DNA of 61,917 bases, filler included. It is 15 parts of 15 records of this genome, joined end to end, with 100 filler letters (N's around TTAATTAATTAA, not from the genome) between each part and the next. Parts side by side here need not be neighbours in the genome. Positions count along the whole stretch, not along the records: positions 44,658 to 50,628 come from SRR11831580_1924; 14 more parts are not named here. The stretch is one strand, 5' to 3'. This document shows positions 879 to 55,563 of this stretch, in pieces (the stretch's first letter is position 1; each line of letters starts with the position of its first letter). The translations under genes and the position numbers were made by a program. Under the pieces are notes generated by a model. The model worked only from the letters and a program-made list of their open reading frames with translations, searched no databases and was not told where the DNA came from.

Positions 879-1931
879 TTGAGTAAAAATAAACTCTCCA
901 AAGGCCAGCAGCGCCGCGTGAACGCCAATCACCAGCGTCGTCTTAAAACGTCTAAGGAGAAGCCCGACTACGACGACAATCTGTTTGGCGAGCCTGATGA
1001 AGGTATCGTCATCAGCCGCTTTGGTATGCACGCTGATGTGGAATCCGCCGATGGCGACGTTCACCGCTGCAATATTCGCCGTACCATCCGTTCGCTGGTA
1101 ACCGGCGACCGCGTAGTCTGGCGTCCGGGTAAACCGGCGGCGGAAGGCGTAAATGTCAAAGGGATCGTGGAAGCGGTGCATGAGCGTACCTCGGTGTTGA
1201 CGCGTCCGGATTTCTACGACGGCGTAAAACCTATTGCCGCCAACATCGACCAGATTGTCATTGTCTCCGCCATTTTGCCGGAGCTGTCGCTCAATATTAT
1301 CGACCGTTACCTGGTGGCCTGCGAAACCTTGCAGATTGAGCCGATTATTGTGCTCAACAAGATAGACCTGCTGGACGACGAAGGCATGGCGTTCGTCAAC
1401 GAGCAGATGGATATCTACCGCAATATCGGTTATCGCGTATTGATGGTTTCCAGCCATACTCAGGATGGGCTAAAACCGCTGGAAGAGGCGTTGACCGGGC
1501 GCATCAGCATTTTTGCCGGGCAGTCTGGCGTCGGCAAATCCAGCCTGCTGAATGCGTTGCTGGGGCTGCAAAAAGAGATCCTGACCAACGATATCTCTGA
1601 CAACTCGGGGCTCGGTCAGCACACCACGACCGCCGCTCGGCTGTATCACTTCCCGCACGGCGGTGATGTGATTGACTCCCCAGGAGTGCGTGAGTTCGGC
1701 CTCTGGCACCTGGAGCCGGAACAAATCACTCAGGGCTTTGTCGAATTCCATGACTATTTAGGTCTGTGTAAATATCGCGATTGCAAACACGATACCGATC
1801 CGGGCTGCGCTATCCGGGAAGCGGTTGAGGAAGGGAAAATCGCGGAAACCCGTTTCGAAAACTATCACCGTATTCTGGAAAGCATGGCGCAGGTAAAAAC
1901 GCGTAAAAACTTTTCTGATACGGATGACTGA
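879..1931 (+). CDS. rsgA: Ribosome small-subunit-dependent GTPase A
   Basis: TTG start after AGGAG; circularly permuted GTPase motifs [16 protein letters not shown]; CxxxxCxHxxxxxC zinc site; 350 aa. Confidence 0.97.
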
Positions 1932-2027
1932 CAATTAAGCTAACCGTCGTTAGAATCGTCCCCTTTTTTTCAGGATCCGGCATGTAGGCCGGATCAGGAA
2001 CGACAAAACAATGGCCTGGAGGCTACC

Positions 2028-2996
2028 TTGTTAAATTCATTTAAACTTTCGCTACAGTACATTCTGCCGAAACTATGGCTTACTCGCCTGGCGGGTTGGG
2101 GCGCAAGCAAGCGGGCAGGATGGCTGACAAAACTGGTTATCGATCTGTTCGTTAAATACTACAAGGTCGACATGAAAGAGGCGCAAAAGCCGGACACCGC
2201 CAGCTACCGCACCTTTAACGAATTCTTTGTCCGTCCGCTGCGTGACGAAGTACGCCCAATCGATACCGATCCGAATGTACTGGTCATGCCTGCCGATGGC
2301 GTTATCAGCCAGTTGGGTAAAATCGAAGAAGATAAAATCCTGCAAGCCAAAGGCCACAACTACAGCCTCGAAGCCCTGCTGGCAGGCAACTATCTGATGG
2401 CGGACCTGTTCCGCAACGGTACGTTTGTGACCACTTACCTCTCCCCGCGTGACTACCACCGCGTACACATGCCGTGCAACGGTATTCTGCGTGAGATGAT
2501 CTACGTGCCGGGCGATCTCTTCTCCGTTAACCATCTCACGGCTCAGAACATGCCGAATCTGTTTGCCCGTAACGAACGCGTGATTTGCCTTTTCGATACC
2601 GAATTTGGCCCAATGGCGCAGATTCTGGTCGGAGCGACGATTGTTGGCAGCATTGAGACGGTCTGGGCGGGCACCATTACGCCGCCGCGCGAAGGTATCA
2701 TCAAGCGCTGGACCTGGCCTGCCGGGGAAAACGACGGTTCTGTGGCACTGCTGAAAGGCCAGGAAATGGGTCGCTTTAAACTCGGTTCCACCGTTATCAA
2801 CCTGTTTGCACCGGGTAAAGTGAATCTGGTTGAGCAACTGGAAAGCCTGTCTGTCACGAAAATTGGCCAGCCGCTGGCAGTATCTACCGAAACCTTTGTT
2901 ACGCCAGACGCTGAACCTGCCCCGCTTCCTGCTGAAGAGATCGAAGCAGAACACGACGCCAGCCCATTGGTTGACGACAAAAAAGACCAGGTCTAA
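2028..2996 (+). CDS. psd: Phosphatidylserine decarboxylase proenzyme
   Basis: 322 aa with [11 protein letters not shown] and the LGST self-cleavage motif. Confidence 0.97.
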
Positions 2997-3017
2997 TCCA
3001 TCAAAGGAAACGCTGAC

Positions 3018-6000
3018 GTGCGCCTGATTATCACTTTTCTGATGGCCTGGTGCCTCAGTTGGGGGGCGTACGCCGCGACGGCCCCCGATAGCAAACAAAT
3101 CACTCAGGAACTGGAGCAGGCAAAAGCGGCGAAACCCGCACAGCCGGAAGTCGTAGAGGCGCTCCAGTCTGCCTTAAATGCGCTTGAGGAACGAAAAGGT
3201 TCCCTTGAGCGCATCAAACAATATCAGCAAGTTATCGATAATTATCCGAAACTCTCCGCTACTCTGCGCGCACAATTAAACAACATGCGTGACGAGCCGC
3301 GCAGCGTGTCGCCGGGAATGTCTACCGACGCGCTGAATCAGGAAATTCTCCAGGTCAGCAGCCAGTTGCTGGATAAAAGCCGTCAGGCCCAGCAAGAGCA
3401 GGAGCGCGCCCGCGAGATTGCCGATTCGCTGAATCAACTGCCGCAACAGCAAACCGACGCCCGCCGTCAGTTAAATGAGATCGAGCGCCGCCTGGGAACG
3501 CTTACCGGCAATACTCCGCTCAATCAGGCACAAAATTTCGCGTTGCAGTCTGACTCTGCACGTCTTAAGGCGCTCGTTGATGAACTGGAGCTGGCGCAGC
3601 TGTCTGCCAATAACCGCCAGGAATTAGCGCGCTTACGCTCAGAGCTGGCGGAAAAAGAGAGCCAGCAACTGGATGCGTATTTGCAGGCCTTGCGTAATCA
3701 ATTAAACAGCCAACGTCAGCTTGAGGCGGAGCGGGCGCTGGAAAGTACCGAATTGCTGGCAGAAAACAGCGCCGATTTGCCGAAAGATATCGTCGCGCAA
3801 TTCAAAATTAACCGCGAACTATCGGCGGCTTTGAATCAACAGGCGCAGCGGATGGATCTCGTTGCCTCGCAACAGCGTCAGGCTGCCAGCCAGACGTTAC
3901 AGGTCCGGCAGGCGTTGAATACGCTGCGTGAACAGTCGCAATGGCTGGGATCGTCCAATCTGCTCGGCGAAGCGCTGCGGGCGCAGGTGGCACGGCTGCC
4001 GGAAATGCCGAAACCACAACAGCTTGATACCGAAATGGCGCAGTTGCGTGTGCAACGGTTACGTTATGAGGATCTGCTTAATAAACAGCCGCTGCTACGG
4101 CAAATTCATCAGGCCGACGGTCAGCCGCTGACTGCCGAGCAAAACCGTATTCTGGAAGCACAACTGCGCACTCAGCGTGAGTTGCTGAACTCATTGTTGC
4201 AGGGTGGCGACACGCTACTATTGGAACTGACCAAGCTGAAAGTCTCCAACGGGCAACTGGAGGATGCACTGAAAGAGGTGAACGAAGCAACGCACCGCTA
4301 TCTGTTCTGGACCTCTGACGTGCGCCCGATGACCATCGCCTGGCCGCTGGAAATCGCCCAGGATCTGCGTCGTCTCATTTCGCTGGACACCTTCAGTCAG
4401 TTGGGCAAAGCCAGTGTGATGATGCTGACCAGCAAAGAGACAATTTTGCCGCTGTTTGGCGCGTTGATTCTGGTCGGTTGCAGTATTTACTCGCGCCGCT
4501 ATTTCACCCGTTTTCTTGAACGTTCGGCGGCGAAAGTTGGCAAAGTGACTCAGGATCACTTCTGGCTGACGTTGCGCACTCTTTTCTGGTCGATTCTCGT
4601 CGCGTCACCGTTACCGGTGCTGTGGATGACGCTGGGTTACGGCTTGCGCGAGGCGTGGCCTTATCCGCTGGCGGTCGCGATTGGCGATGGTGTAACGGCC
4701 ACCGTGCCGCTGCTGTGGGTAGTGATGATTTGCGCCACCTTTGCCCGCCCGAACGGCTTGTTTATCGCTCATTTTGGCTGGCCGCGCGAACGTGTTTCCC
4801 GTGGGATGCGCTACTACCTGATGAGCATCGGGCTTATTGTGCCGCTGATTATGGCGCTGATGATGTTCGATAACCTCGACGACCGTGAATTCTCCGGTTC
4901 GCTGGGACGGCTTTGCTTTATCCTCATTTGCGGTGCGCTGGCGGTGGTCACCCTCAGCCTGAAAAAGGCCGGGATTCCGCTGTATCTCAACAAAGAGGGC
5001 AGCGGCGACAACATTACCAACCATATGCTGTGGAACATGATGATTGGCGCGCCGTTGGTTGCCATTCTGGCGTCGGCGGTGGGTTATCTGGCAACGGCAC
5101 AGGCGCTGTTAGCGAGGCTTGAAACCTCGGTTGCCATCTGGTTCCTGCTACTGGTGGTTTATCACGTTATCCGCCGCTGGATGCTGATCCAGCGCCGCAG
5201 GCTGGCGTTTGATCGGGCGAAGCATCGCCGGGCAGAGATGTTAGCGCAACGTGCGCGTGGCGAAGAGGAAGCGCATCATCACAGTAGCCCGGAAGGAGCA
5301 ATTGAAGTCGATGAAAGCGAAGTCGATCTCGATGCCATCAGTGCGCAATCCTTGCGGCTGGTGCGCTCAATTTTGATGTTGATCGCCCTGCTTTCTGTCA
5401 TTGTGCTGTGGTCAGAAATCCATTCCGCTTTCGGCTTCCTCGAAAATATTTCGCTGTGGGATGTCACCTCCACGGTACAGGGCGTAGAAAGTCTGGAGCC
5501 AATTACCCTCGGTGCGGTGCTGATTGCCATTCTGGTGTTTATCATCACCACGCAGCTGGTGCGCAACTTGCCCGCGCTGCTGGAACTGGCGATTTTGCAG
5601 CACCTGGATTTAACGCCGGGTACGGGTTACGCCATCACCACCATCACCAAATATCTGCTGATGCTGATTGGCGGGCTGGTCGGCTTCTCAATGATTGGTA
5701 TTGAGTGGTCGAAATTGCAGTGGCTGGTTGCCGCGCTCGGTGTTGGTCTCGGTTTTGGTTTGCAGGAAATTTTCGCCAACTTTATCTCTGGTCTGATTAT
5801 CCTGTTCGAAAAACCGATTCGCATTGGCGATACGGTGACAATTCGCGATCTCACCGGTAGCGTGACGAAAATTAACACCCGCGCCACCACCATCAGCGAC
5901 TGGGACCGTAAAGAGATAATCGTGCCGAACAAGGCGTTTATTACCGAGCAGTTTATCAACTGGTCGCTCTCTGACTCGGTCACGCGCGTGGTGTTGACGA

Positions 6001-6341
6001 TACCGGCCCCTGCCGATGCCAATAGCGAAGAAGTGACGGAAATCCTGCTCACCGCAGCGCGTCGCTGCTCGCTGGTGATCGACAACCCGGCACCGGAAGT
6101 CTTCCTGGTGGATCTGCAACAGGGGATTCAGATTTTCGAGCTGCGTATTTACGCCGCTGAGATGGGTCACCGTATGCCGCTACGCCATGAGATCCACCAG
6201 CTGATTCTGGCTGGCTTCCATGCCCACGGTATCGATATGCCATTCCCGCCCTTCCAGATGCGTCTGGAAAGCCTCAACGGTAAACAAACGGGGAGAACGC
6301 TGACGTCTGCGGGCAAAGGTCGTCAGGCGGGAAGTTTGTAA
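3018..6341 (+). CDS. mscM: Miniconductance mechanosensitive channel MscM (YjeP)
   Basis: 1107 aa; signal peptide, periplasmic coiled coils, TM region and MscS domain (GLGFGLQEIFANFISG). Confidence 0.95.
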   Translation: MRLIITFLMAWCLSWGAYAATAPDSKQITQELEQAKAAKPAQPEVVEALQSALNALEERKGSLERIKQYQQVIDNYPKLSATLRAQLNNMRDEPRSVSPGMSTDALNQEILQVSSQLLDKSRQAQQEQERAREIADSLNQLPQQQTDARRQLNEIERRLGTLTGNTPLNQAQNFALQSDSARLKALVDELELAQLSANNRQELARLRSELAEKESQQLDAYLQALRNQLNSQRQLEAERALESTELLAENSADLPKDIVAQFKINRELSAALNQQAQRMDLVASQQRQAASQTLQVRQALNTLREQSQWLGSSNLLGEALRAQVARLPEMPKPQQLDTEMAQLRVQRLRYEDLLNKQPLLRQIHQADGQPLTAEQNRILEAQLRTQRELLNSLLQGGDTLLLELTKLKVSNGQLEDALKEVNEATHRYLFWTSDVRPMTIAWPLEIAQDLRRLISLDTFSQLGKASVMMLTSKETILPLFGALILVGCSIYSRRYFTRFLERSAAKVGKVTQDHFWLTLRTLFWSILVASPLPVLWMTLGYGLREAWPYPLAVAIGDGVTATVPLLWVVMICATFARPNGLFIAHFGWPRERVSRGMRYYLMSIGLIVPLIMALMMFDNLDDREFSGSLGRLCFILICGALAVVTLSLKKAGIPLYLNKEGSGDNITNHMLWNMMIGAPLVAILASAVGYLATAQALLARLETSVAIWFLLLVVYHVIRRWMLIQRRRLAFDRAKHRRAEMLAQRARGEEEAHHHSSPEGAIEVDESEVDLDAISAQSLRLVRSILMLIALLSVIVLWSEIHSAFGFLENISLWDVTSTVQGVESLEPITLGAVLIAILVFIITTQLVRNLPALLELAILQHLDLTPGTGYAITTITKYLLMLIGGLVGFSMIGIEWSKLQWLVAALGVGLGFGLQEIFANFISGLIILFEKPIRIGDTVTIRDLTGSVTKINTRATTISDWDRKEIIVPNKAFITEQFINWSLSDSVTRVVLTIPAPADANSEEVTEILLTAARRCSLVIDNPAPEVFLVDLQQGIQIFELRIYAAEMGHRMPLRHEIHQLILAGFHAHGIDMPFPPFQMRLESLNGKQTGRTLTSAGKGRQAGSL

Positions 6342-6369
6342 GTTTGTGTGCCGGATGAACCAATCCGGC

Positions 6370-6684
6370 TCACAAACAAAACTGATAGCGCAGAAAAAAC
6401 TGCCACAGCCAGTAGCCGAAAATAGCCAGCGCGGTGGCGTACATAAACCAGCCGCGTTTTTTTCGCCACAAAGCGAACCAGAGAAAAGGGAAAAAGAGCG
6501 GTAACGTCATTATCACACCAACATCACGGGTATCGTCTTCTTCGAGATACATCAACACATCGCAGACGTTGTTAATCCCGCGTCCATCAATCATCCACTC
6601 TTTGTCCAGCGCGGAAGTGATGGTTATCCAGAGGAACGCCACAATAAACCAGATGCAGCATAAGACAAACATGCGCGCACTCAT
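6370..6684 (-). CDS. yjeO: Small inner-membrane protein YjeO
   Basis: 104-aa hydrophobic protein in K-12 synteny after yjeN. Confidence 0.85.
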   Translation of the reverse strand: MSARMFVLCCIWFIVAFLWITITSALDKEWMIDGRGINNVCDVLMYLEEDDTRDVGVIMTLPLFFPFLWFALWRKKRGWFMYATALAIFGYWLWQFFLRYQFCL

Positions 6685-6995
6685 AAGGTAACCGGTCGCT
6701 TAATTTCGCTATAGCGCATACGAAACAAATCGCCGTATCCCACTAATTCCCCGCGAAAAACCAGACATCGGATAAGATAAGCGCAATAAATATCCGGCAG
6801 GTTTCCCCACCGTTTACCATCGCGATCTTTGAGGGTGTTAATGGTGCTACCCACCACCATCGCCACTTTACGGGTGTGGCAGGCATCGACAAAAGAGAGA
6901 ATCGTCTGCTCTATTTCCGCTACATCCCCGGCAGAAAATTGCAGCGCCCTGATTTCATCTTCGGTTATTGCCGGGTCCCGGCTGGTGTCATCCAT
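6681..6995 (-). CDS. yjeN: Uncharacterised protein YjeN
   Basis: 104 aa, overlaps yjeO by 4 nt; K-12 synteny. Confidence 0.85.
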   Translation of the reverse strand: MDDTSRDPAITEDEIRALQFSAGDVAEIEQTILSFVDACHTRKVAMVVGSTINTLKDRDGKRWGNLPDIYCAYLIRCLVFRGELVGYGDLFRMRYSEIKRPVTL

Positions 6996-7046
6996 AACAT
7001 TTCCTGTCTTTACGCCCTATCGTCAGGTAGACGATAGGGCATCGGG

Positions 7047-7815
7047 TTATTCCACCGCCCACTGCGGATTTTTTGCCACTCTGCTGCAATAGTTCTGGTA
7101 AATCGCCATCGCTAACAGCGAGAAGAAGACAGGGCCGCCAATCATCCACAATGTGCTGTCCCAGTCTCCGGCTTCAACCACAGGTTGAATGATGGTGAAG
7201 ACGTTCGCAAATGTCACCACCAGTACGACAACCACTGTCGCAATCATTGCCGACAAATGCGTTTTGAAAATCACAAACGGTCTGTCGAGATCCTGACGTG
7301 CTTTAAAGAACGGGAAAGCCAGCGCGAGGAACAGGTAAGGAAGCGTCATAGACACGTTCGCCATCAGCGTCAGCTTGTTAAAGAACGCCGATGCGGTACC
7401 GCCACCAAACGAAACCAGCAGGATGAAGACAGTAACCAACCCGCACTGCATCCACATGGCGATAGACGGCATCCCCATCGCATTCAGGCGCGTCATCGGT
7501 TCCGGCCACAATGCTTTCGGCGTCCCCTGGATGATGGCTTTCAACGGTGAATAGCAAAGCGTAAAGAACGCACCGGTATAGGCGAGGAACATCGAAAGTC
7601 CAGTAATACGCGCAAACCATACGCCCAGCGACAATGACGCTTCAGGTGACAAATGCAGTGCATTACCCAGCGTCATCCCAAGGCTCTTCATCAGCACATA
7701 GGTAATATTGCCGAGGTTAACGGAACCATTACTTAATACCTGCTGCCAGTTTGTGCTGACGCCCCATAAAAATATTGCCAGCGAATAACCGATTGAAATA
7801 ACAATAGCGGCAAAA
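7047..7815 (-). CDS. yjeM: APC-family amino-acid transporter YjeM, 3' part (contig-truncated)
   Basis: Multi-TM ORF running into the spacer; synteny with yjeN/yjeO. Confidence 0.85.
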
Positions 7816-7915
7816 NNNNNNNNNNNNNNNNNNNNNNNNNNNNNNNNNNNNNNNNNNNNTTAATTAATTAANNNNNNNNNNNNNNNNNNNNNNNNNNNNN
7901 NNNNNNNNNNNNNNN
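7816..7915. other. Artificial contig spacer N/TTAATTAATTAA/N. Identical spacers at 14344-14443, 19875-19974, 23000-23099, 25909-26008, 30698-30797, 33196-33295, 35501-35600, 41550-41649, 44558-44657, 50629-50728, 53002-53101, 55464-55563, 57672-57771
   Basis: Identical 100-nt blocks with stops in all six frames separate loci that are unlinked in E. coli. Confidence 0.99.
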
Positions 7916-7967
7916 GACTAGCGCCGGACCAGGCTAGCTGGCGAAGCGACATGCGAGGTATTTGCAT
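7916..7967 (-). CDS. mzrA: EnvZ/OmpR modulator MzrA, 5' fragment
   Basis: MQIPRMSLRQLAWSGA begins just after the yqjA stop. Confidence 0.8.
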
Positions 7968-7970
7968 CCC

Positions 7971-8633
7971 TTACCCCCGATTTCCATATTTCTTTTTCCA
8001 TAACACGACCAGAGAACCTGCCAGGCCAAACACCAGCAGCACCACCGGGAGCAGCATCAGGCATGACATCAGCTGGTCCTCGTACTTTAAAAATACCGGC
8101 GTTTTGCCGAGCATGTAACCCAGAGTTGTCAGGATCAATACCCACAGCAGACCGCTCATCCAGTTGAAAAACTGAAAGCGCGCGTTATTCAGCCCTGATA
8201 ACCCGGCAATCGTCGGCAGCAGTGTTCTGACAAACGCAATAAAGCGACCAATTAACAGCGCCGATAAACCGTGTTTATGAAAAAGATGGTGTGCGCGTTG
8301 ATGATAATGCGCGGGTAAATGAGATAGCCAGTTTTGTACGGTGCGGGTATTGCCCAGCCATCGCCCCTGAATATAGCTGACCCAGCAGCCGAGGCTGGCG
8401 GCAACGGTCAGCAGCAGAATCGTTTGCGGATAGCCCATCGCGCCTTTCGCAATCAACACGCCGACCAATACCAGTAAACTGTCGCCCGGTAAAAAGGCCG
8501 CCGGAAGCAAGCCGTTTTCAAGGAACAAAATTACAAACAAGACAAAATACAACATGCCAATCATCGATGGATTGGCCAGGGTTTCAAAATCCTGCGCCCA
8601 CAGGGCTTGCAGCAATTGGGTCAAAAGTTCCAT
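7971..8633 (-). CDS. yqjA: DedA-family inner-membrane protein YqjA
   Basis: 220 aa; [17 protein letters not shown] and GRFIAFVRT DedA motifs. Confidence 0.95.
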
Positions 8634-14343: not shown

Positions 14344-14443
14344 NNNNNNNNNNNNNNNNNNNNNNNNNNNNNNNNNNNNNNNNNNNNTTAATTAATTAAN
14401 NNNNNNNNNNNNNNNNNNNNNNNNNNNNNNNNNNNNNNNNNNN

Positions 14444-19874: not shown

Positions 19875-19974
19875 NNNNNNNNNNNNNNNNNNNNNNNNNN
19901 NNNNNNNNNNNNNNNNNNTTAATTAATTAANNNNNNNNNNNNNNNNNNNNNNNNNNNNNNNNNNNNNNNNNNNN

Positions 19975-22999: not shown

Positions 23000-23099
23000 N
23001 NNNNNNNNNNNNNNNNNNNNNNNNNNNNNNNNNNNNNNNNNNNTTAATTAATTAANNNNNNNNNNNNNNNNNNNNNNNNNNNNNNNNNNNNNNNNNNNN

Positions 23100-41549: not shown

Positions 41550-41649
41550 NNNNNNNNNNNNNNNNNNNNNNNNNNNNNNNNNNNNNNNNNNNNTTAATTA
41601 ATTAANNNNNNNNNNNNNNNNNNNNNNNNNNNNNNNNNNNNNNNNNNNN

Positions 41650-44557: not shown

Positions 44558-44657
44558 NNNNNNNNNNNNNNNNNNNNNNNNNNNNNNNNNNNNNNNNNNN
44601 NTTAATTAATTAANNNNNNNNNNNNNNNNNNNNNNNNNNNNNNNNNNNNNNNNNNNN

Positions 44658-44687
44658 TTGAGGGCCAATGGAACGAAAACGTACGTT
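44658..44687 (+). repeat. Tn1000 terminal inverted repeat (tnpA side)
   Basis: TTGAGGGCCAATGGAACGAAAACGTACGTT. Confidence 0.97.
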
Positions 44688-47600
44688 AAGGAGATAATTC
44701 GTTGTTTATATTTAAATTTAGAGCTCTCAGTTCCCCTTTTAAAATATCCTCTGGCAACGTGAATGTATAATGGCCCAACATATTGATATGCCCGTGCATC
44801 AGGGGAGATAGCCGAGCGATATCTTCATCTATAATTTCTTCGCCATTACGGCGCATCCAGCTCAACGCTTCCTCCATATAGAGCGTGTTCCACAGAACCA
44901 CTGCATTAGTAACCAGGCCCAGCGCCCCCAGTTGATCTTCCTGCCCTTCACGATAACGCTTTCTGATCTCTCCGCGTTGTCCGTAACAAATCGCACGAGC
45001 CACAGCGTGGCGGCCTTCTCCTCGATTAAGCTGCGTCAGGATCCGCCGACGATAATCTTCATCATCAATATAATTGAGGAGATATAGCGTTTTGTTTACA
45101 CGCCCTACTTCCATAATTGCCTGTGCCAGTCCTGATGGGCGCGAGCTTTTCAGTAAAGAGCGAATGAGTTCTGACGCATGAATTGTACCCAACTTCAGCG
45201 AACCAGCGGTTCGCATCATCTCATCCCACTGACTCTCCGCTTTTGACAGATCTGCATATCCTCGGGCCAACTTATCCAGTACTCCGTAGTTTGCCGATTT
45301 ATTCACCCGCCAGAACACCGCCTCACCTGCATCGGCAAGCCGGGGGGAAAACTGATACCCCAGTAGCCAGAACAGACCGAAAATAATATCGCTGCTACCC
45401 GCAGTGTCTGTCATGATTTCAACTGGATTCAGCCCTGTCTGCTGCTCAAGAAGTCCTTCCAGTACAAAAATCGAATCCCGTAATGTACCGGGTACCACAA
45501 TGCCATGGAACCCAGAGTACTGATCAGATACGAAGTTATACCAGGTGATGCCTCGTCCAGAACCAAAATATTTTCTGTTAGATCCTGAGTTGATGGTCTT
45601 CACTGGTGTGACAAAGCGCATGCCGTCAGCTGATGCCACTTCTCCACCTCCCCAACGACCAGCAAGCTCCAGTGTGGACTGAAAATCAACCAGGCGGGCA
45701 TTGGCGCTGACCAGCGTTTCTGCACGAAGGTAATTCTGTTTCACCCAACTGAGCCGATGGCGGGTCAGTGCTGGTATATTGTGCTTTATCAGCGGTTCCA
45801 GTCCGATATTACAGGCTTCAGCCATCAATACCGCACATAAACTGATGTGCAAATCTTGCGCTCGAGCACCAGATTCACTGACATGCGCAAACTCATGTGT
45901 AAATCCTGTCTGGGCATCTATCTCAAGTAACAGTTCCGTTAAATCTACCGGTGGGAGTAGCTGTTTGATCCGATTATTTAGACGAAGCAATGATGGTGGC
46001 TCTTCCTGTTTCTCCAGACAACTGATAGTCAGGGATGGATATTTACCTTCATTACAGATATGAACTTCCGCATTCTTTTCAAATCGTGATGCCACGGCTT
46101 TCCAGGTCTCATCCAGCTGAATAGCCAGTTGTTGCACACCTTTACGTCCATCGACAGGATGTCCCAGTGCCCGACAGACAGGAATACGCTGAGTCTGCCA
46201 CTCTTCACCTTGCAACAACTTCTCGCGAGGATCTCCCCAGCGATCACTGTTTTCAAGCCAGATGTCCCGGCGGCGCAGTGCATCCTGAAGGCGTTCCAGC
46301 AAACATAGTGAATAACCTGCACGCTGTATCCGTCCCTCCGCATCGTATACGAGGCGTTTCCAGGGACCGGTGATAATATGTTCAGGCGCATCATCAAGGA
46401 TGCGCTTTTTCGAACCATTCAGTTCTGCCAGATAATGAATCGCAGCCAGTACATGTTCACCTGCCGGTGCCGCACGGAAATGCAGGTCCCGCAACACCGC
46501 CGGAAGAAAACGTTTAACCCGACCGTACTGCTCAACCATTTCGTCATGGAAATTATTGTTCTGTGGACGAGCAAGTTCATTAACCTTGCTTACAGATTCT
46601 GCCAGTCTGTTTTTGGGTACGCACTTGAAGATAACCTGCCTGAGATCTGGGACATCTGTATTATCATCCAGCAACAATGCACATGCCCGCGCCAGTAACA
46701 ATGCGGCCTGATCAAGATCTTTCAGTGTCCTGAGTCGTTTTTTTTGCCCGGTTTTCTTTGCTTCGCGGATAATGTCCAGAATTAGCATATCAAGCACATC
46801 AACGGCATCGTCTAATGCCGTTATTTCCTGTGCTTTAACGAATGCAGTAAGTACAGCAAGCTTTCTCTGCTGTGGCATTCGAGCGATATATTTTACCGAC
46901 GCCATGCCAGCATAACGAGCCAGATTACGCAGTTGAATGGCAGGCAGACCGGAAAAGTTCAGTCGGGAAAACTCAAGACTTCGTAATCGGATATATCGTT
47001 CCAGCGCTTCATTAAACGCAGGTCCACTGACTGTAACAGGGCCTTTTTTCAACTGTTCCAGTGCTGATACACGCTGACCTTCCGGAATGACCAGAAGCTC
47101 CATCACTTGAGCTGCCTGCCATTTGTTCGGCAGTGCGGCCAGCTTTTTCCACAGCCGCTGATTTGCCCTTTCACGAATTTCACTGATGAGACGTACTAGT
47201 GTGGTTGCTCCGGGCAGTAATACCTTATTTTGAAGCAACCATGCAGTGGCAAAATCAAACATCAGACCCGGTCGCTCATTACTGAGCCACGCCCGGGTAT
47301 ATAGCAGACGCTTCAGGCGGAAAGACCATGGAAAATCACCAAATTCATGATAGCCGTAATATTCCTTAATTAATGCAGTATGTTCTCTAAGGGTAGTGTC
47401 CCGTTCAGCATAGCGGGAGAGAACTTCTGGACGGTGGATATTAAGCTGTACCGCGACAAAATGTTGAACACCAGGCAGAACCTGAGTTAAATCCGTCAGA
47501 AATGTTCCCAGAAAACGGGCTGTGGTGAGCTGAAGCGCAATGCCCAGCCTATTATGTTTGCCCCGTCGTTGGTTAATGAAGGCCAGATCCCGTTCATCAA

Positions 47601-47694
47601 GATGAAAATAGCGCGCCAGTTGCACGTCATTAGGTTCTGCAGCATAACAACCGTAATTCTGTTTTTGGTCAGAGGTTAGAAAGTCGACAGGCAT
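44686..47694 (-). CDS. tnpA: Tn3-family transposase of Tn1000
   Basis: 1002 aa; ASADG, MTDTAG, LNRGE DDE motifs; stop overlaps the IR. Confidence 0.97.
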   Translation of the reverse strand: MPVDFLTSDQKQNYGCYAAEPNDVQLARYFHLDERDLAFINQRRGKHNRLGIALQLTTARFLGTFLTDLTQVLPGVQHFVAVQLNIHRPEVLSRYAERDTTLREHTALIKEYYGYHEFGDFPWSFRLKRLLYTRAWLSNERPGLMFDFATAWLLQNKVLLPGATTLVRLISEIRERANQRLWKKLAALPNKWQAAQVMELLVIPEGQRVSALEQLKKGPVTVSGPAFNEALERYIRLRSLEFSRLNFSGLPAIQLRNLARYAGMASVKYIARMPQQRKLAVLTAFVKAQEITALDDAVDVLDMLILDIIREAKKTGQKKRLRTLKDLDQAALLLARACALLLDDNTDVPDLRQVIFKCVPKNRLAESVSKVNELARPQNNNFHDEMVEQYGRVKRFLPAVLRDLHFRAAPAGEHVLAAIHYLAELNGSKKRILDDAPEHIITGPWKRLVYDAEGRIQRAGYSLCLLERLQDALRRRDIWLENSDRWGDPREKLLQGEEWQTQRIPVCRALGHPVDGRKGVQQLAIQLDETWKAVASRFEKNAEVHICNEGKYPSLTISCLEKQEEPPSLLRLNNRIKQLLPPVDLTELLLEIDAQTGFTHEFAHVSESGARAQDLHISLCAVLMAEACNIGLEPLIKHNIPALTRHRLSWVKQNYLRAETLVSANARLVDFQSTLELAGRWGGGEVASADGMRFVTPVKTINSGSNRKYFGSGRGITWYNFVSDQYSGFHGIVVPGTLRDSIFVLEGLLEQQTGLNPVEIMTDTAGSSDIIFGLFWLLGYQFSPRLADAGEAVFWRVNKSANYGVLDKLARGYADLSKAESQWDEMMRTAGSLKLGTIHASELIRSLLKSSRPSGLAQAIMEVGRVNKTLYLLNYIDDEDYRRRILTQLNRGEGRHAVARAICYGQRGEIRKRYREGQEDQLGALGLVTNAVVLWNTLYMEEALSWMRRNGEEIIDEDIARLSPLMHGHINMLGHYTFTLPEDILKGELRALNLNINNELSP

Positions 47695-47738
47695 ATCAGG
47701 CTCCCTACCTGACAGTTATTCATTAACAATTTTGCAAC

Positions 47739-48409
<671 letters not shown>

Positions 48410-48424
48410 CATAAAAGGTTGAAT

Positions 48425-50521
48425 ATGGAATTGAATATTACTTCAAAGTCTAATCCGTTTGGTGATACGACAGCAGAAAATGATAAAAAGATGTTGAGTA
48501 ATGCTTTCATTGAAACTGCTGACTTTAGGACTCTAATTGAAACTGATGACAGGACCATTGTTGTTGGTAGACGAGGGACAGGTAAAAGTGCTTTATTTAT
48601 TCAGCTAAATGAGCATTGGAAGAAAGACAAAAAAATATTAATCCTGAGTTTCTCACCAGACGATTCTCAAATTATTGGTTTCAGATCAATGTTGAAACCA
48701 TTTACAGGATCATTTAATTTAGCAAGGGCAGCAACAAGACTATTATGGCGATACGCTATGCTAATGGAGATAGCATCATATATATCATCTCATTACAAAT
48801 TGTCATCTCAAATATCATCAGAAACATTGTTGAATGAACATTTGAAAAAATGGAATTCTGCACAAGGTGACATTTTAAGAAAGTGTAGGCTTGTCGCAAA
48901 GGAGTATTTAGATGAAAATAACCCAGAAGAATCAATTGGTGATCTTCAATTCAATTTGAATATCTCAGAAATAGAAAATAATATAGTATCACTTCTTGAA
49001 CGCTCAGACAGGAAAGTTGTCATATTAATGGATAAGCTAGATGAGGCGTATGAACCGGATAATATAGGAATTGGAATCATTGCAGGTCTAGCATATGCAT
49101 CTATTGAATTAAATCAAAAAGCAAAATGCATTCGTCCAATAATTTTTTTAAGGGATAATATATTTAGGTCGCTATCAAAGGAAGATCCTGATTACTCGAG
49201 AAATATAGAGGGTCAAGTCATAAGGTTGCATTGGGACTGGGCACAACTCCTAATGCTGTCAGCTAAAAGAATGAAAGTAGCATTTAAGCTAGATATTGAG
49301 AAAGATCAACGAGTTTGGGATAGATGCACAGCGGATGATCTTAAAGGGAGGAATGGTTTTAAGCGATGTTTGCAATTTACCCTTTACCGGCCCAGGGATT
49401 TACTATCATTGTTGAATGAAGCTTTTTTTTCCGCATTCAGAGAGAATAGAGAAACTATCATAAACACTGACCTAGAATATGCAGCCAAGTCAATTTCCAT
49501 GGCCAGACTTGAAGATCTCTGGAAAGAGTATCAGAAGATCTTTCCTTCAATACAGGTTATAACTAGTGCATTTCGTAGCATTGAACCTGAATTAACAGTT
49601 TATACGTGCTTAAAAAAAATAGAAGCATCTTTCGAATTAATCGAAGAAAATGGAGATCCTAAAATAACGTCTGAAATACAGTTGTTAAAGGCAAGTGGAA
49701 TTCTCCAAAGTTTGTATAGTGTAGGATTTGTTGGTATTCGTGATAAAAACACCTCATCCTATTCATTTTGCCATGACGGGCGAACTCCAGATAAAGGTTT
49801 TGAAAGTAATGAGAAATTATTAATTCATCCATGTTACTGGCTTGGTTTGAATCTAAATCGTAATGCACTTGCTCCAGAGGAAGCAGAGGAGATAAATGAC
49901 GAATATGATATTAATATTATTTCAGATAATTCAGCCATTAGAAATAAAACAATAGGTCAAATAACTACTCATCTAGATCAGATACCGATAGGAAATGAAG
50001 GTGCCACTGAATTTGAACAATGGTGTTTAGACGCACTAAGAATAGTATTTGCATCCCACCTAACAGACATCAAGTCCCATCCAAATGGTAACGCAGTTCA
50101 GAGACGAGATATTATAGGCACCAATGGTGGCAAATCTGATTTTTGGAAACGAGTATTGGAGGACTATAAAACAAGACAAGTTGTTTTTGATGCTAAAAAT
50201 TTTGAAGAATTAGGTCCATCTGAGTATAGACAATTACAATCATATTTAACAGGTCCGTATGGAAAGCTCGGTTTTATAATTAATAGAGATGAGAGTGAGG
50301 TATTGAAATCAGGAAAAGATTTAGATTGGACAAAGGAAATGTATCAATCCCATAATTCATTAATAATAAAGTTACCTGCGAAATATATATCTAAACTGCT
50401 GCAGAAATTAAGAAATCCTGAAAAACATGACGCTATAGATAGACAGATGGGGAAACTTTTAACTTTATATGAAACATCATATATGGCTATTAAAAGCACC
50501 CAAAAGAAAAGAAGAAAATAA
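48425..50521 (+). CDS. tnpX: Tn1000 cargo protein TnpX: P-loop NTPase fused to a C-terminal PD-(D/E)xK-like nuclease
   Basis: Walker A GRRGTGKS (48566-48589), Walker B VVILMDKLDE, RPRD, and C-terminal FEQWC...RRDII...VVFDAKN; AT-rich. ATG 48425 follows AAGG; the ORF track uses TTG 48419. Confidence 0.88.
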   Translation: MELNITSKSNPFGDTTAENDKKMLSNAFIETADFRTLIETDDRTIVVGRRGTGKSALFIQLNEHWKKDKKILILSFSPDDSQIIGFRSMLKPFTGSFNLARAATRLLWRYAMLMEIASYISSHYKLSSQISSETLLNEHLKKWNSAQGDILRKCRLVAKEYLDENNPEESIGDLQFNLNISEIENNIVSLLERSDRKVVILMDKLDEAYEPDNIGIGIIAGLAYASIELNQKAKCIRPIIFLRDNIFRSLSKEDPDYSRNIEGQVIRLHWDWAQLLMLSAKRMKVAFKLDIEKDQRVWDRCTADDLKGRNGFKRCLQFTLYRPRDLLSLLNEAFFSAFRENRETIINTDLEYAAKSISMARLEDLWKEYQKIFPSIQVITSAFRSIEPELTVYTCLKKIEASFELIEENGDPKITSEIQLLKASGILQSLYSVGFVGIRDKNTSSYSFCHDGRTPDKGFESNEKLLIHPCYWLGLNLNRNALAPEEAEEINDEYDINIISDNSAIRNKTIGQITTHLDQIPIGNEGATEFEQWCLDALRIVFASHLTDIKSHPNGNAVQRRDIIGTNGGKSDFWKRVLEDYKTRQVVFDAKNFEELGPSEYRQLQSYLTGPYGKLGFIINRDESEVLKSGKDLDWTKEMYQSHNSLIIKLPAKYISKLLQKLRNPEKHDAIDRQMGKLLTLYETSYMAIKSTQKKRRK

Positions 50522-50542
50522 AATCAGCTACAACATACGAAA

Positions 50543-50564
50543 GGGTCCCTGAAAAGGGACCTTT
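50543..50564 (+). terminator. Terminator after tnpX
   Basis: GGTCCCT-GAAA-AGGGACC followed by TTT. Confidence 0.7.
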
Positions 50565-50578
50565 GTATACTGTATTAT

Positions 50579-50591
50579 AATCAATAAGTTA
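50579..50591 (+). promoter_or_regulatory. IHF site next to the Tn1000 end
   Basis: AATCAATAAGTTA matches WATCAANNNNTTR. Confidence 0.7.
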
Positions 50592-50598
50592 TACCATA

Positions 50599-50628
50599 AA
50601 CGTACGTTTTCGTTCCATTGGCCCTCAA
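50599..50628 (-). repeat. Tn1000 terminal inverted repeat (tnpX side)
   Basis: Exact reverse complement of 44658-44687. Confidence 0.97.
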
Positions 50629-50728
50629 NNNNNNNNNNNNNNNNNNNNNNNNNNNNNNNNNNNNNNNNNNNNTTAATTAATTAANNNNNNNNNNNNNNNN
50701 NNNNNNNNNNNNNNNNNNNNNNNNNNNN

Positions 50729-51883
50729 AAAAAATTGTTATTTTTATCAATTAGCCATTTATTCGTATTAAATCTGTTAATAAAATCGATCATCTGTTGG
50801 GTATCGAAATTCACCTCACTGAATCGATGTTGACGCATAAAATCATCGAACTTGTTATCTTCATCAGAATGGATATAACTGCGTATAATGGGATCTTTTA
50901 TATAAGGACAATGGCTAAATATTTTCTTCATATTCTCAATAAAGTTTTATTAACAATATTAAGTATTTTAATTGCATCACCAGTTTTACGGCCAGAACGG
51001 ATTTCAATATCATTGCATTATCTGGCAATGTATCAATCATTTTTATAATGTTATTGATATAACCATCGAGATCTTCATTCCAAAATATATCTGAATAATC
51101 AATAGTTAATTCCAATTGTTCTGTAATGCAATCTTTAAAATTCCCTGTCGACATTCGCACATAATCAAACATAACAGCTGTCAAATTCGATTTAATAAAT
51201 GATATTTCTTTGGCAGACAGAAACTCTGCTCTGGTGAAGTGCGAAGCGTAAAGATAACAATTATCGAAGTTTGAATTTCTAATCTGACATTCGCGAAAAT
51301 TACTATGACCAAGTTGACTCTGCGAGAAGTCAACTGTATCAAGAATATTTTTGCTGAAATCGACACATTCACCACTCGCTTTGATAAAAATCACATTGTG
51401 TAAACGTCGACATCTAAATATGACATTATCAACTATTGCAGTAGTAAAATTGCAATCCCCAATTTCTTTACATTCGAATGTTACATGTTGTAGATTTGAT
51501 GATAAAAAAGACACCTTCGATATAACGTCACCTTTAAAATGACAACTTGTTAAATCCAAATCAGACAGGTCGATATACCCCTGCGCATCTTTATCCATCA
51601 GAAAATTGCAAGCGCATTCAATTTTTTTCATTTCTGTAGAATTTTACACTTATAGTATCATTACTGATTGAGACTTCACGAAACATATTTATTGCATGAT
51701 TTTTTCGTTCCGTTGTTTTATATTTGAAAAAATATTGCTGATATAAATAAAGTTATCTCTGTTTAAACCTGGCACCCCATTTAAATTACGTAGTAAATCA
51801 AGATCTACTATATTATTTCCTTGCACCACATCATGTTTCATCAAAGAGTTATTGCCGCCAGAATTTAGGATATGACTTATCAT
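50729..51883 (-). pseudogene. yjbI: Pentapeptide-repeat protein gene yjbI, broken by several A-run frameshifts and truncated by the contig end
   Basis: Fragments 51689-51883, 50936-51631 (pentapeptide-like repeats) and 50729-50931 join up through single-base changes in A runs; very AT-rich; downstream of malM. Confidence 0.8.
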
Positions 51884-52053
51884 AAAACCTCTGCATAACA
51901 GAAATAAAATAACCTGGAAAAGTAGCCTGAATGTCCAGACACTACCGGCGAAAGGAAAAGAATCTCTGATAAGGCATTGAGATAATGGATATTCTTAGTG
52001 AAGAAGAAGTGAGTTACTATAAAAAATCGCTCATATCCCAGGAAGGAAGCATA

Positions 52054-52080
52054 AAAAAAGGTGCGCCAGGAGACGCACCA
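52054..52080 (-). terminator. Terminator after malM
   Basis: GGTGCG-ccaggaga-CGCACC hairpin with an A-run on + (U-tract on -). Confidence 0.7.
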
Positions 52081-52111
52081 GTTGTTGCAAAATCAGCACT
52101 GTGGGGCGTAA

Positions 52112-53001
52112 TTACCCCTTGCCTTTTACACTGCTGATAAAGGTGGAACGGGCAGATGTCGATCCCAGGCGTTCAGCTTCATCAAGCAGTTTTAACGCCT
52201 TATCAACATCACCTTTCGCGACAGCGTTTTTGATCGCGGTATTAAAATAACTTTCCGTGTCGTTGAGCATCGGCTCGCTTTTCTTCACCGGTGCCGGAGC
52301 GGGTGCAGCCACAGCTGGTGCCGCCGTGTTACCTACCGTAACCGGAGCTGGAGCGGAAGAACCAAATAAAGGTCCTACCAACACGCTGGAGCTGGAGTTC
52401 GTTTTCACTTTCAGTTTCAGTAAGCCATCGGTGGTATGACGAGCAACCGGATCGGGGATATCCGGGATCGAGTTACCGACGCCCTTGGCATAGGCTTTAG
52501 CCGGGTCGAGCAGTTGGGTCGTCTGCTGGAGATCTTTTTCCGTGGTAAAGACCAGAACATAAAGTTTTTGCTGCCCCAACGCCGGTGTCAGGCGCATAAC
52601 GCCTTCCAGCCGATCTGCACTCATCACGCCTGGTTCCTGGTAGGTGAAATAACTGCTGGGGAAGAAGGCTGATGGGGTCATGTTCTGATCAAGAATCAGC
52701 ACGTTCGGCGCAAAAACGCTGGTTTGTTTGTTCACTTCGCTGGTCAGCGTCAGGGTCAGTTCGCCAATGTTTGCCGGGACGCTGTACGCAGCAACCGGAC
52801 CACTGATGCCGGGAACGTTCAGTTGTTGGCCGCCGGTCGCCAGTTGGGTGGTCTGGGTTTTAGATTGATCGACCGGTGTCCAGGTGAGTTGTTGCAGCGC
52901 AACAGATGGAATGGCTGGCGCGTCGCTGGTGTTTTGCGGTACGTAGTTAACATCGGCAAGGCTAATTCCAGGCGCGCTTGCCAGTAACCCTGCTGATAAA
53001 C
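52112..53001 (-). CDS. malM: Maltose regulon periplasmic protein MalM, 5'-truncated
   Basis: Open frame from the contig edge; Ala/Pro linker APAVAAPAPAP; ends ...SSVKGKG. Confidence 0.93.
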
Positions 53002-53101
53002 NNNNNNNNNNNNNNNNNNNNNNNNNNNNNNNNNNNNNNNNNNNNTTAATTAATTAANNNNNNNNNNNNNNNNNNNNNNNNNNNNNNNNNNNNNNNNNNN
53101 N

Positions 53102-55463: not shown

Positions 55464-55563
55464 NNNNNNNNNNNNNNNNNNNNNNNNNNNNNNNNNNNNN
55501 NNNNNNNTTAATTAATTAANNNNNNNNNNNNNNNNNNNNNNNNNNNNNNNNNNNNNNNNNNNN

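Follow-up and report, generated by a model that had tools for sequence, protein, structure and literature searches.

The transposon Tn1000 (gamma-delta) carries, beside its transposase gene tnpA and its resolvase gene tnpR, a third gene, tnpX, whose product is predicted to join an ATPase of the initiator type to a PD-(D/E)xK nuclease. The copy described here lies in a stretch of 61,917 nucleotides (nt), called the window throughout, which is made up of 15 small contigs and 14 identical 100-nt linkers, each of the form N44-TTAATTAATTAA-N44. Tn1000 is a single contig of 5,971 nt (44658-50628) and differs from the F-plasmid copy at one of these 5,971 positions (46737, within tnpA). Since the contigs are joined by linkers, the DNA on either side of Tn1000 in the window is not the insertion site of the transposon, and in such a concatenated draft assembly adjacency across linkers carries no meaning. 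The flanks were considered as genomic context and were rejected, as N-linkers separate the joined contigs.

The outermost 5 nt of both inverted repeats of Tn1000 are masked by runs of N. The divergent region between tnpA and tnpR, which we take to be the location of res and of the promoters, contains one promoter-like site (47723-47751, + strand), and the counts of such sites are not above those of shuffled sequences. The stop codon of tnpR (48407-48409) is followed, after a gap of 15 nt, by the ATG of tnpX (48425), which is preceded by AAAGG and is also the start given in RefSeq. The DNA of tnpX is 100% identical to positions 4303-6399 of the F plasmid (NC_002483.1), and its GC content is 0.343 as compared to 0.446 for tnpR and 0.485 for tnpA. 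RefSeq names the product of tnpA "Tn3-like element ISEc63 family transposase", that of tnpR "recombinase family protein" and that of tnpX "P-loop ATPase, Sll1717 family" (WP_000422420.1). An earlier note on this DNA had described a markedly AT-rich gene of about 700 amino acids (aa) within the ends of Tn1000, 15 nt after tnpR, and this description holds. The terminator that it had ascribed to the gene fared less well. A GC-rich hairpin after the tnpX stop is real and, with an A-tract on one side and a U-tract on the other, could terminate in both directions; however, the terminator scan called it on the - strand only and listed 3 terminator-like sites as against 1.7 +/- 1.7 in shuffles, so that the scan lends it no statistical weight.

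Features of Tn1000 and linkers of the window, in positions of the whole window
Feature	Position	Strand	Remarks
Left terminal inverted repeat	44658-44687		readable 30 nt; reverse-complement match to 50599-50628
tnpA, Tn3-family transposase	44686-47694	-	1002 aa; Pfam DDE_Tnp_Tn3 3e-149, DUF4158 2.2e-54
Divergent tnpA-tnpR intergenic region	47695-47857		GC 0.319
tnpR, resolvase	47858-48409	+	183 aa; Pfam Resolvase 5.4e-41, HTH_7 3.3e-09
tnpX	48425-50521	+	intact open reading frame (ORF); 698 aa from ATG; in-frame TTG at 48419 gives 700 aa
AAA+ ATPase module of TnpX (predicted)	48485-49453	+	residues about 23-345
Winged-helix-like helix-strand domain after the lid (predicted)	49454-49858	+	residues about 346-480
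PD-(D/E)xK nuclease domain (predicted)	49994-50488	+	residues about 526-690
GC-rich hairpin	50544-50561		22 nt past tnpX stop; -18.3 kcal/mol including A/U flanks
Right terminal inverted repeat	50599-50628		readable 30 nt
Linkers 1-7	7816-7915, 14344-14443, 19875-19974, 23000-23099, 25909-26008, 30698-30797, 33196-33295
Linkers 8-14	35501-35600, 41550-41649, 44558-44657, 50629-50728, 53002-53101, 55464-55563, 57672-57771

Residues of TnpX are numbered here from the TTG (2 is to be subtracted for numbering from the ATG). Every motif named in the earlier note is found in the sequence: G50RRGTGKS57, VVILMD205KLD208E209, FLR245D246N247, R324PRD327, E533 (in FEQW), R563D564, and D591-A-K593-N594. 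Walker A is formed by G50-S57 and Walker B by D205 with D208/E209. In 42 full-length homologues, all motif residues are invariant except position 591, which is E in 22 and D in 20, and K593, which is kept in 41. Among 48 C-terminal domains, E533 and D564 are each present in all 48, and an acidic residue at position 591 and K593 in 47 each.

The ATPase module was examined in a full-length AlphaFold2 model built from the 42 homologues, with a mean pLDDT of 81.3. In this model, strands 2 and 3 are separated by a helical insertion of about 100 residues (99-195), R245-D246-N247 ends strand 4, and R324-P-R-D327 starts the lid helix (325-341). By their position in the fold, we read the former as sensor-1-like and the latter as sensor-2-like. 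The domain after the lid consists of helices 349-372, 394-411, and 414-434, followed by strands 438-442, 447-451, and 466-469. The Foldseek search placed Cdc6/Orc1 on top (1fnn with E 3.9e-6, 2qby, and 2v1u), and VIA-align gave Cdc6/Orc1 2qby_A a Z of 14.2 over 337 aligned residues (model 7-480), in an alignment that includes the Cdc6/Orc1 winged helix. TnsC (7ufi, Z 13.8; 7rzy, 13.3; 9g0f, 11.8), the RADAR ATPase RdrA (10.8), and MuB (8xvb, 10.7) were also matched. A Walker A/B base followed by a helical lid with a conserved arginine is what characterizes the initiator type; in TnpX the lid helix has R324 and R326, both invariant in 42/42 homologues, and on the model the N-terminal 480 residues are an initiator-type AAA+ ATPase with a winged-helix-like domain.

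Cdc6/Orc1, TnsC, and MuB are ATPases that assemble on double-stranded DNA in their ATP-bound state. TnpX shares with them the fold of the ATPase base and lid, and with Cdc6/Orc1 the winged helix as well, at a sequence identity of 10-17%. Unlike these proteins, it has the helical insertion and a fused nuclease, and its homologues outside Tn1000 stand in no replication or transposition context. The full-length profile found no sequence-level match to PDB chains at E <= 0.1. At the level of sequence families, TnpX belongs to the Sll1717 family (NCBIfam NF047389, E 1e-86, 291.9 bits against a cut-off of 75), whose profile spans residues 14-477 over its whole length (1-454 of 454) and stops before the nuclease. 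Many of the look-alike clusters consist of proteins that have the ATPase only, with about 480-630 aa, and TnpX is the nuclease-fused form. The family name has no function attached to it, and the literature search found no paper naming "Sll1717" or the RefSeq accession.

The earlier note had regarded the NTPase as STAND/KAP-related, a label that suits it less well. KAP_NTPase (PF07693) gave no match in TnpX up to an E of 1 in Pfam, and the insertion is soluble and helical in the model, unlike the membrane helices of the KAP-family P-loop domain. The NACHT match is limited to the P-loop (E 0.017, residues 45-71), and no C-terminal sensor repeat region is present in the full TnpX model. The best folds are those of Cdc6/Orc1 and TnsC, and TnpX shows the marks neither of a KAP-family nor of a STAND (NACHT/NB-ARC) NTPase. 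The Pfam matches of the TnpX ATPase are all sub-threshold: ORC-CDC6-like (PF24389) reaches 26.8 bits against a cut-off of 27 and covers residues 12-60 only, while many homologues have a PF24389 match. Among language-model look-alikes, KAP or nSTAND labels are found on 11-13% of members (KAP_NTPase on 11% in one cluster). Foldseek against viral models returned nothing beyond generic AAA+, clamp-loader, and KAP-labelled rows, and the one match below 1e-3 is uncharacterised.

The C-terminal domain was also modelled alone, from the 48 homologues, with a pLDDT of 90.5. It has an alpha-beta-beta-beta-alpha-beta core consisting of helix 526-543, strands 548-555, 563-569, and 587-592, helix 600-607, and strand 617-622. 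E533 lies in helix 1, D564 begins strand 2, and D591-A-K593 ends strand 3; the core fold, the acid on strand 2 (D564 in 48/48), and the (D/E)-x-K on strand 3 are the marks of a PD-(D/E)xK nuclease. These four residues occupy the place at which an active site is expected from the fold. In a representative-wide structural search with VIA-align, the closest chains were FokI (2fok, Z 10.8, 156 residues aligned, rmsd (root-mean-square deviation) 3.9), the small subunit of R.BspD6I (10.8), and N.BspD6I (10.6), followed by the Mrr-like domain of LlaBIII (9.3) and EcoT38I (9.2). Five chains have a Z of at least 8, every one of them a restriction nuclease. Lower scores were obtained with further restriction and defence nucleases, namely MspJI, HindIII, SduA (7.3), Card1 (6.8), Can2, NucC, Hna, Avs4 (5.8), and McrC (5.5). 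The full model aligned with Nt.BspD6I over residues 506-693 (Z 11.1).

Foldseek on the nuclease domain alone reached a best E of only 1.0e-3, so that the nuclease assignment rests on VIA-align, and the PDB search with the nuclease-domain profile gave chance-level RNase P rows only (E about 0.1). On the models, the assignment as a predicted PD-(D/E)xK nuclease is well supported by fold and motif. The earlier note had proposed a Foldseek search on a structural model and would have taken the lack of a nuclease fold as speaking against its idea; the fold is present in the model. Its wording, an Mrr-like PD-(D/E)xK domain, stands as to the fold and to D564, D591, and K593, but FokI/BspD6I are closest and the Mrr-like LlaBIII comes next. 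FokI/BspD6I (AlwI-type) and LlaBIII share with TnpX the restriction-endonuclease fold with E...D...(D/E)xK, and look-alike clusters of the TnpX nuclease are named Mrr, RE_AlwI, and PDDEXK_3. The identity of FokI/BspD6I with TnpX is 10-17%, and the likeness is one of fold. The partner differs too, since the TnpX nuclease is joined to an AAA+ ATPase and the FokI/BspD6I-type domain to a recognition domain.

The family to which TnpX belongs is large. A search with the ATPase part found 1,898 representative relatives at E <= 1e-3, of which 177 at E <= 1e-30, and full-length relatives (about 700 aa) numbered 1,035 at E <= 1e-3 among 7,999 candidates from many phyla. In a quick tree, classes and phyla are intermixed. 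Pfam was applied to 22 relatives, which comprised 17 of the 27 listed matches of atypical length (<660 or >715 aa) and 5 typical ones, and 8 of the 22 were found to bear another domain on the same ATPase. A PNP_UDP_1 nucleosidase-type domain occurs in four relatives, at either end, and a CHAT protease, an adenylate/guanylate cyclase, a calcineurin-like phosphoesterase, and a sigma-54 activator with a helix-turn-helix in one relative each. The exchange of effectors on a constant nucleotide switch is a signature of conflict systems. The view of the earlier note that the fusion of ATPase and nuclease is an architecture of the defence-protein kind is supported.

In Tn1000, tnpX is cargo. Transposition and resolution of gamma-delta require only tnpA, tnpR, res, and the ends. 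Among 79 homologue loci (1.40 Mb) examined for Tn3-type TnpA/TnpR, either was found in one only (L003), where tnpX is outside the repeats. The earlier note, which had called the gene cargo, is supported on this point. A tnpX within the element was found only in Tn1000 and in a sister on an Enterobacter kobei plasmid, and a constant association with Tn3 tnpA/tnpR was not observed. The E. kobei plasmid has the same tnpA/tnpR/tnpX layout, and its tnpX is 90.0% identical in nucleotides and 97.0% in amino acids, with a dN/dS (ratio of nonsynonymous to synonymous substitution rates) of 0.023, as compared to 0.050 for tnpR and 0.060 for tnpA. Judged from these sequences, tnpX is under strong purifying selection, and the constraint on it is no weaker than that on tnpA and tnpR. 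Viable strains have been obtained in which tnpX on F is interrupted by an insertion at 426 bp (PMC7880599), a finding that has no bearing on transposition.

The element in L003, a Klebsiella sp. contig (1501-7720, 8524-13458), belongs to the Tn1000 family, is bounded by the same inverted repeat, and has a TnpA 92% identical to that of Tn1000. Its slot after tnpR is occupied by two TIR genes, one ThsB-like and one of the DUF1883-TIR type (the latter with PDC-S66 5.3e-71, ThsB 5.1e-43), and by an unknown ORF of 235 aa. L003 also has a tnpX, 95% identical, which is found 2.3 kb outside the transposon with parDE on one side and an integrase on the other. Given these TIR/ThsB-like genes, the slot occupied by tnpX in Tn1000 can take recognised defence-type genes.

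The occurrence of tnpX is patchy. Within the same bacterial family, 6 of 301 genomes had a match, and 126 of 5,426 complete E. coli genomes had one, in which the matches occupy 73 chromosomal and 58 plasmid places. Identical copies are present in the chromosomes of DH5alpha and JM83 and on F, and an MG1655-labelled strain is also among the E. coli matches. In DH5alpha (L125, NZ_CP025520.1, locus 1533-8440), the genes that border a complete Tn1000 with intact tnpX, an ion-channel gene on one side and mhpD beside lacI on the other, are both truncated, and this Tn1000 therefore lies at a rearrangement or deletion junction. Among the plasmid records with a match, 229 of 273 were typed as conjugative. 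Homologues also occur in two Klebsiella phage records of 109.6 kb, the size of phage-plasmids, and at 21 loci on IMG/VR contigs, and a PHROG of unknown function matches the tnpX ATPase (1.1e-75). The target ORF is split or shorter (<650 aa) in 6 of 54 loci, and plasmid copies of tnpX are interrupted by IS1, IS3, and IS903. In Klebsiella plasmids, all 12 partial matches listed (H32-H43) are a 466-nt 3' remnant (query 1637-2102) of a 91%-identical tnpX.

The neighbours of tnpX homologues were compared with PADLOC models by taking as many as three ORFs per side, each of 120 aa or more, which gave 222 ORFs at 53 loci. Four pieces of split target genes were excluded before the count, 3 neighbour ORFs (one in L078, two in L080) were unscanned, and 25 of the 79 loci, with short, partial, or duplicate matches, were omitted. 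The control was small and consisted of 124 of the 138 ORFs in 18 arbitrary 10-kb regions from nine of the same genomes; the 14 ORFs left out include both regions of a tenth genome (20 regions fetched). At E <= 1e-8, a match was found for 39/222 neighbour ORFs and 13/124 control ORFs (Fisher p 0.086), and at E <= 1e-50 for 18/222 and 3/124 (p 0.035), in counts that treat ORFs singly even though the ORFs of one locus are not independent. Counted by locus, 26/53 loci and 9/18 control regions had a match at E <= 1e-8, and 12/53 and 2/18 at E <= 1e-50 (p 0.49). The mere presence of at least one PADLOC match nearby was rejected as a test for defence islands, being just as frequent in the control. 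The defence-island co-occurrence that the earlier note had suggested looking for is thus modest, and it lends a defence role weak support.

Defence-type neighbours comprise pAgo with a TIR partner, HmaB, and HEC-01A (L047), NERD-UvrD and AbiEii (L019), ZorA of Zorya (L029), HamA of Hachiman (L040), PD-Lambda-5 (L054), and PD-T7-4 (L077), and MzaA is also among the matches. No neighbour gene is conserved across 54 loci, the largest neighbour cluster being present in 6 of them. The contexts include parDE with an integrase, IS66, IS110, PARIS, and a slot after glnS. In four loci (L019 8122-9957, L036 8148-10007, L073 8072-9931, L075 8078-9952), the homologue directly follows glnS, which is the upstream gene of about 620 aa that they share, and two of these (L019 and L075) have defence-type genes nearby (NERD-UvrD, AbiEii, and a pAgo-like gene). 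The site after glnS may be an integration hotspot.

The PADLOC search suggested in the earlier note returned partial-length matches only and no known system at full length. In PADLOC-DB 2.0.0 these were PDC-M36A (2.4e-11, residues 521-652), PDC-M28C (1.5e-7, residues 183-280), and PtuA (0.008), and in NCBIfam DS41_1 matched residues 10-76 only (1.2e-14, 54 bits against a cut-off of 370). DS-41 counts as validated in the DefensePredictor study, in which 94 units were tested (PMC13092281). PDC-M36A and PDC-M28C are candidates, and the literature search found no paper naming PDC-M36. The similarity to DS-41, PDC-M36A, and PDC-M28C is local, each match corresponding to one piece of TnpX.

With the single-gene defence proteins of the STAND/Avs type, the TnpX family shares the logic of a nucleotide switch with an exchangeable effector, and the Avs4 nuclease (Z 5.8) and RdrA (Z 10.8) resemble modules of TnpX. 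Unlike them, TnpX has no large C-terminal sensor repeats, its fold resembles initiator-type AAA+ more closely than NACHT/NB-ARC, and it matches no PADLOC model of Avs or RdrA. McrBC is alike in architecture, as it combines an AAA+ motor with a PD-(D/E)xK nuclease (McrC, Z 5.5) and undergoes nucleotide-dependent assembly before DNA cutting. McrBC, however, is made of two proteins and TnpX of one, and TnpX is without a DNA-reading domain of the McrB type. No modification partner gene adjoins tnpX.

Taken together, the analysis leans, by a small margin over its contrary, toward TnpX being a one-protein, ATP-controlled nuclease carried as a passenger, whose targets would be phage or other invading DNA. 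What favours a role in conflict or defence is that the gene moves singly, that effectors are exchanged in its family, that selection on it is strong, and that TIR genes occupy the same slot in a related element. The earlier note had the anatomy right, and the function that it suggested is reasonable. As to mechanism, the winged helix and the helical insertion would bind a cue of infection, the simplest being foreign DNA or an intermediate of phage replication. Binding of the cue would then induce ATP-dependent oligomerisation, probably on DNA, and oligomerisation would bring the nuclease domains together. FokI cuts only as a dimer, and a FokI-like pairing of this kind could lead to cutting of the DNA, by which the invader would be restricted or the infected cell killed.

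A broader version of this proposal is offered more tentatively, and we would rather doubt it than rely on it. TnpX might represent a new class of one-protein restriction or abortive-infection enzymes licensed by ATP, in which an initiator-type AAA+ reads and assembles on invading DNA and pairs FokI-like domains. The slot after tnpR in gamma-delta-type transposons might be an immunity cassette site, filled by tnpX in Tn1000 and by TIR/ThsB-like genes in the sister element, and the transposons might spread defence between plasmids and chromosomes, those of DH5alpha and F' strains among them.

In the proposed scheme, tnpX is probably transcribed together with tnpR from the res region and hence at a low level. 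Co-transcription is suggested by the 15-nt gap, and the promoter scan found no promoter-like site on the + strand at 48000-48425. In RNA-seq assemblies from three studies (X9, X12, and X14), a single 5,971-nt contig spans the whole transposon; since such a contig could also arise from DNA carry-over, these assemblies cannot separate RNA from DNA. In one further study (run X21), a contig covers 48428-50628 with a word depth of 87 and extends 947 nt past the right end. It starts 3 nt into the tnpX ORF, while for tnpR there is just one contig, of 267 nt and depth 8.9, and three bins are without cover. This gives a weak hint, from contigs that have no strand, that tnpX RNA is present, in an amount that does not just follow that of tnpR RNA, and the pattern may reflect separate or antisense transcription.

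Several observations weigh against a defence role. By fold, the ATPase matches the transposition proteins TnsC and MuB on a par with Cdc6/Orc1, and the sigma-54 activator found as a fusion partner is a regulator and not an effector. TnpX matches no PADLOC-DB 2.0.0 or NCBIfam DS model over its full length. The enrichment of defence genes near its homologues is modest, with a weak signal against the matched control, and several close homologues stand between ordinary housekeeping genes (L004, L005). Expression of tnpX is putative, since DNA carry-over could also account for the full-length RNA-seq contigs. A literature search covering the main text of papers found no link of tnpX or Tn1000 to phage, nor a paper on the inhibition of T-even phages that the earlier note had mentioned. 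The name tnpX occurs in Tn1000 records and in three papers, none of which treats its function. F+ strains and DH5alpha have decades of uneventful use with coliphages behind them, and to our knowledge the only exclusion linked to F is that by Pif against T7-like phages. Any phenotype at native level must consequently be narrow or weak.

Among the alternatives, the one that survives best, though unlikely, is that TnpX serves competition between elements or addiction, attacking rival plasmids and mobile DNA or penalising loss of the element, to the benefit of Tn1000 or F and with no protection of the cell from phage. It draws on the same architecture as the defence proposal, and the DNA-binding AAA+ look-alikes suggest DNA as the ligand. 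Carriage mainly on conjugative plasmids (229/273 plasmid records) and the parDE toxin-antitoxin neighbour in L003 would also suit it. On the other hand, the 54 loci hold no antitoxin-like conserved partner, which makes classical addiction unlikely, and many homologues are found on chromosomes, well away from plasmid genes. The data do not separate plasmid from phage targets.

Still less probable is a cellular role, by which a protein of DNA transactions or regulation (repair, replication control, or signalling) would have been captured by the transposon and would play no part in conflict. The ORC/Cdc6-like fold, the one relative fused to a sigma-54 transcriptional activator, the homologues flanked by housekeeping genes (of which four immediately follow glnS), and the weak defence-island signal could all be read in this way. 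A cellular protein, however, would hardly be expected to occur in only 6/301 genomes of the family and 126/5,426 complete E. coli, to be carried by a transposon, plasmids, and phage-like contigs, or to give a tree that mixes phyla. Frequent breakage (6/54 ORFs below 650 aa and insertions of IS1, IS3, and IS903) and an effector exchange typical of conflict systems also speak against it.

Equally improbable is a helper of transposition, that is, a TnsC/MuB-like, ATP-dependent target selector or immunity factor with a TnsA-like nuclease processing donor or target DNA: TnsC and MuB are tied with Cdc6/Orc1 in the fold matches, and tnpX follows tnpR immediately, within the inverted repeats, and has diverged along with tnpA and tnpR in the sister element, under even stronger constraint than these two (dN/dS 0.023 versus 0.060 and 0.050), but TnpA/TnpR accompany it in 1/79 loci only, where tnpX is 2.3 kb outside and the slot holds TIR genes, the CHAT, PNP, cyclase, and phosphoesterase swaps fit no transposition chemistry, homologues reside in phage-like contigs and between housekeeping genes, and gamma-delta moves with tnpA, tnpR, res, and its ends.

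The remaining contigs of the window hold E. coli-type chromosomal genes, identified with Pfam, which include a mechanosensitive channel, uxaC, asnA, fimH, miaA, ilvC, ilvA, malM, a piece of an enterobactin-type synthetase, and mukF. A TrbI/TraB-like conjugation protein is encoded on a separate contig (26482-27909, +) and suggests that the assembly also contains an F-like plasmid. On the contig that comes next in the window (50729-53001), a gene for a pentapeptide-repeat protein of 231 aa (50936-51631, -; Pentapeptide_4 8.2e-17) is found in very AT-rich DNA (GC about 0.25-0.33), and the same contig has a malM fragment.

Gamma-delta has served for decades as a model transposon, and yet its third and largest-but-one gene has been assigned no function. 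If TnpX is a defence or anti-plasmid nuclease, then DH5alpha, JM83, and F-carrying strains would harbour a factor altering phage plating or DNA uptake. A large family (the 1,898 representative ATPase relatives) would in that case be added to the immune proteins, with an initiator-type AAA+ serving as the switch, and Tn3-family transposons would be vehicles for defence genes. If the role of TnpX is not one of defence, the very strong constraint on the gene (dN/dS 0.023) would still require explanation.

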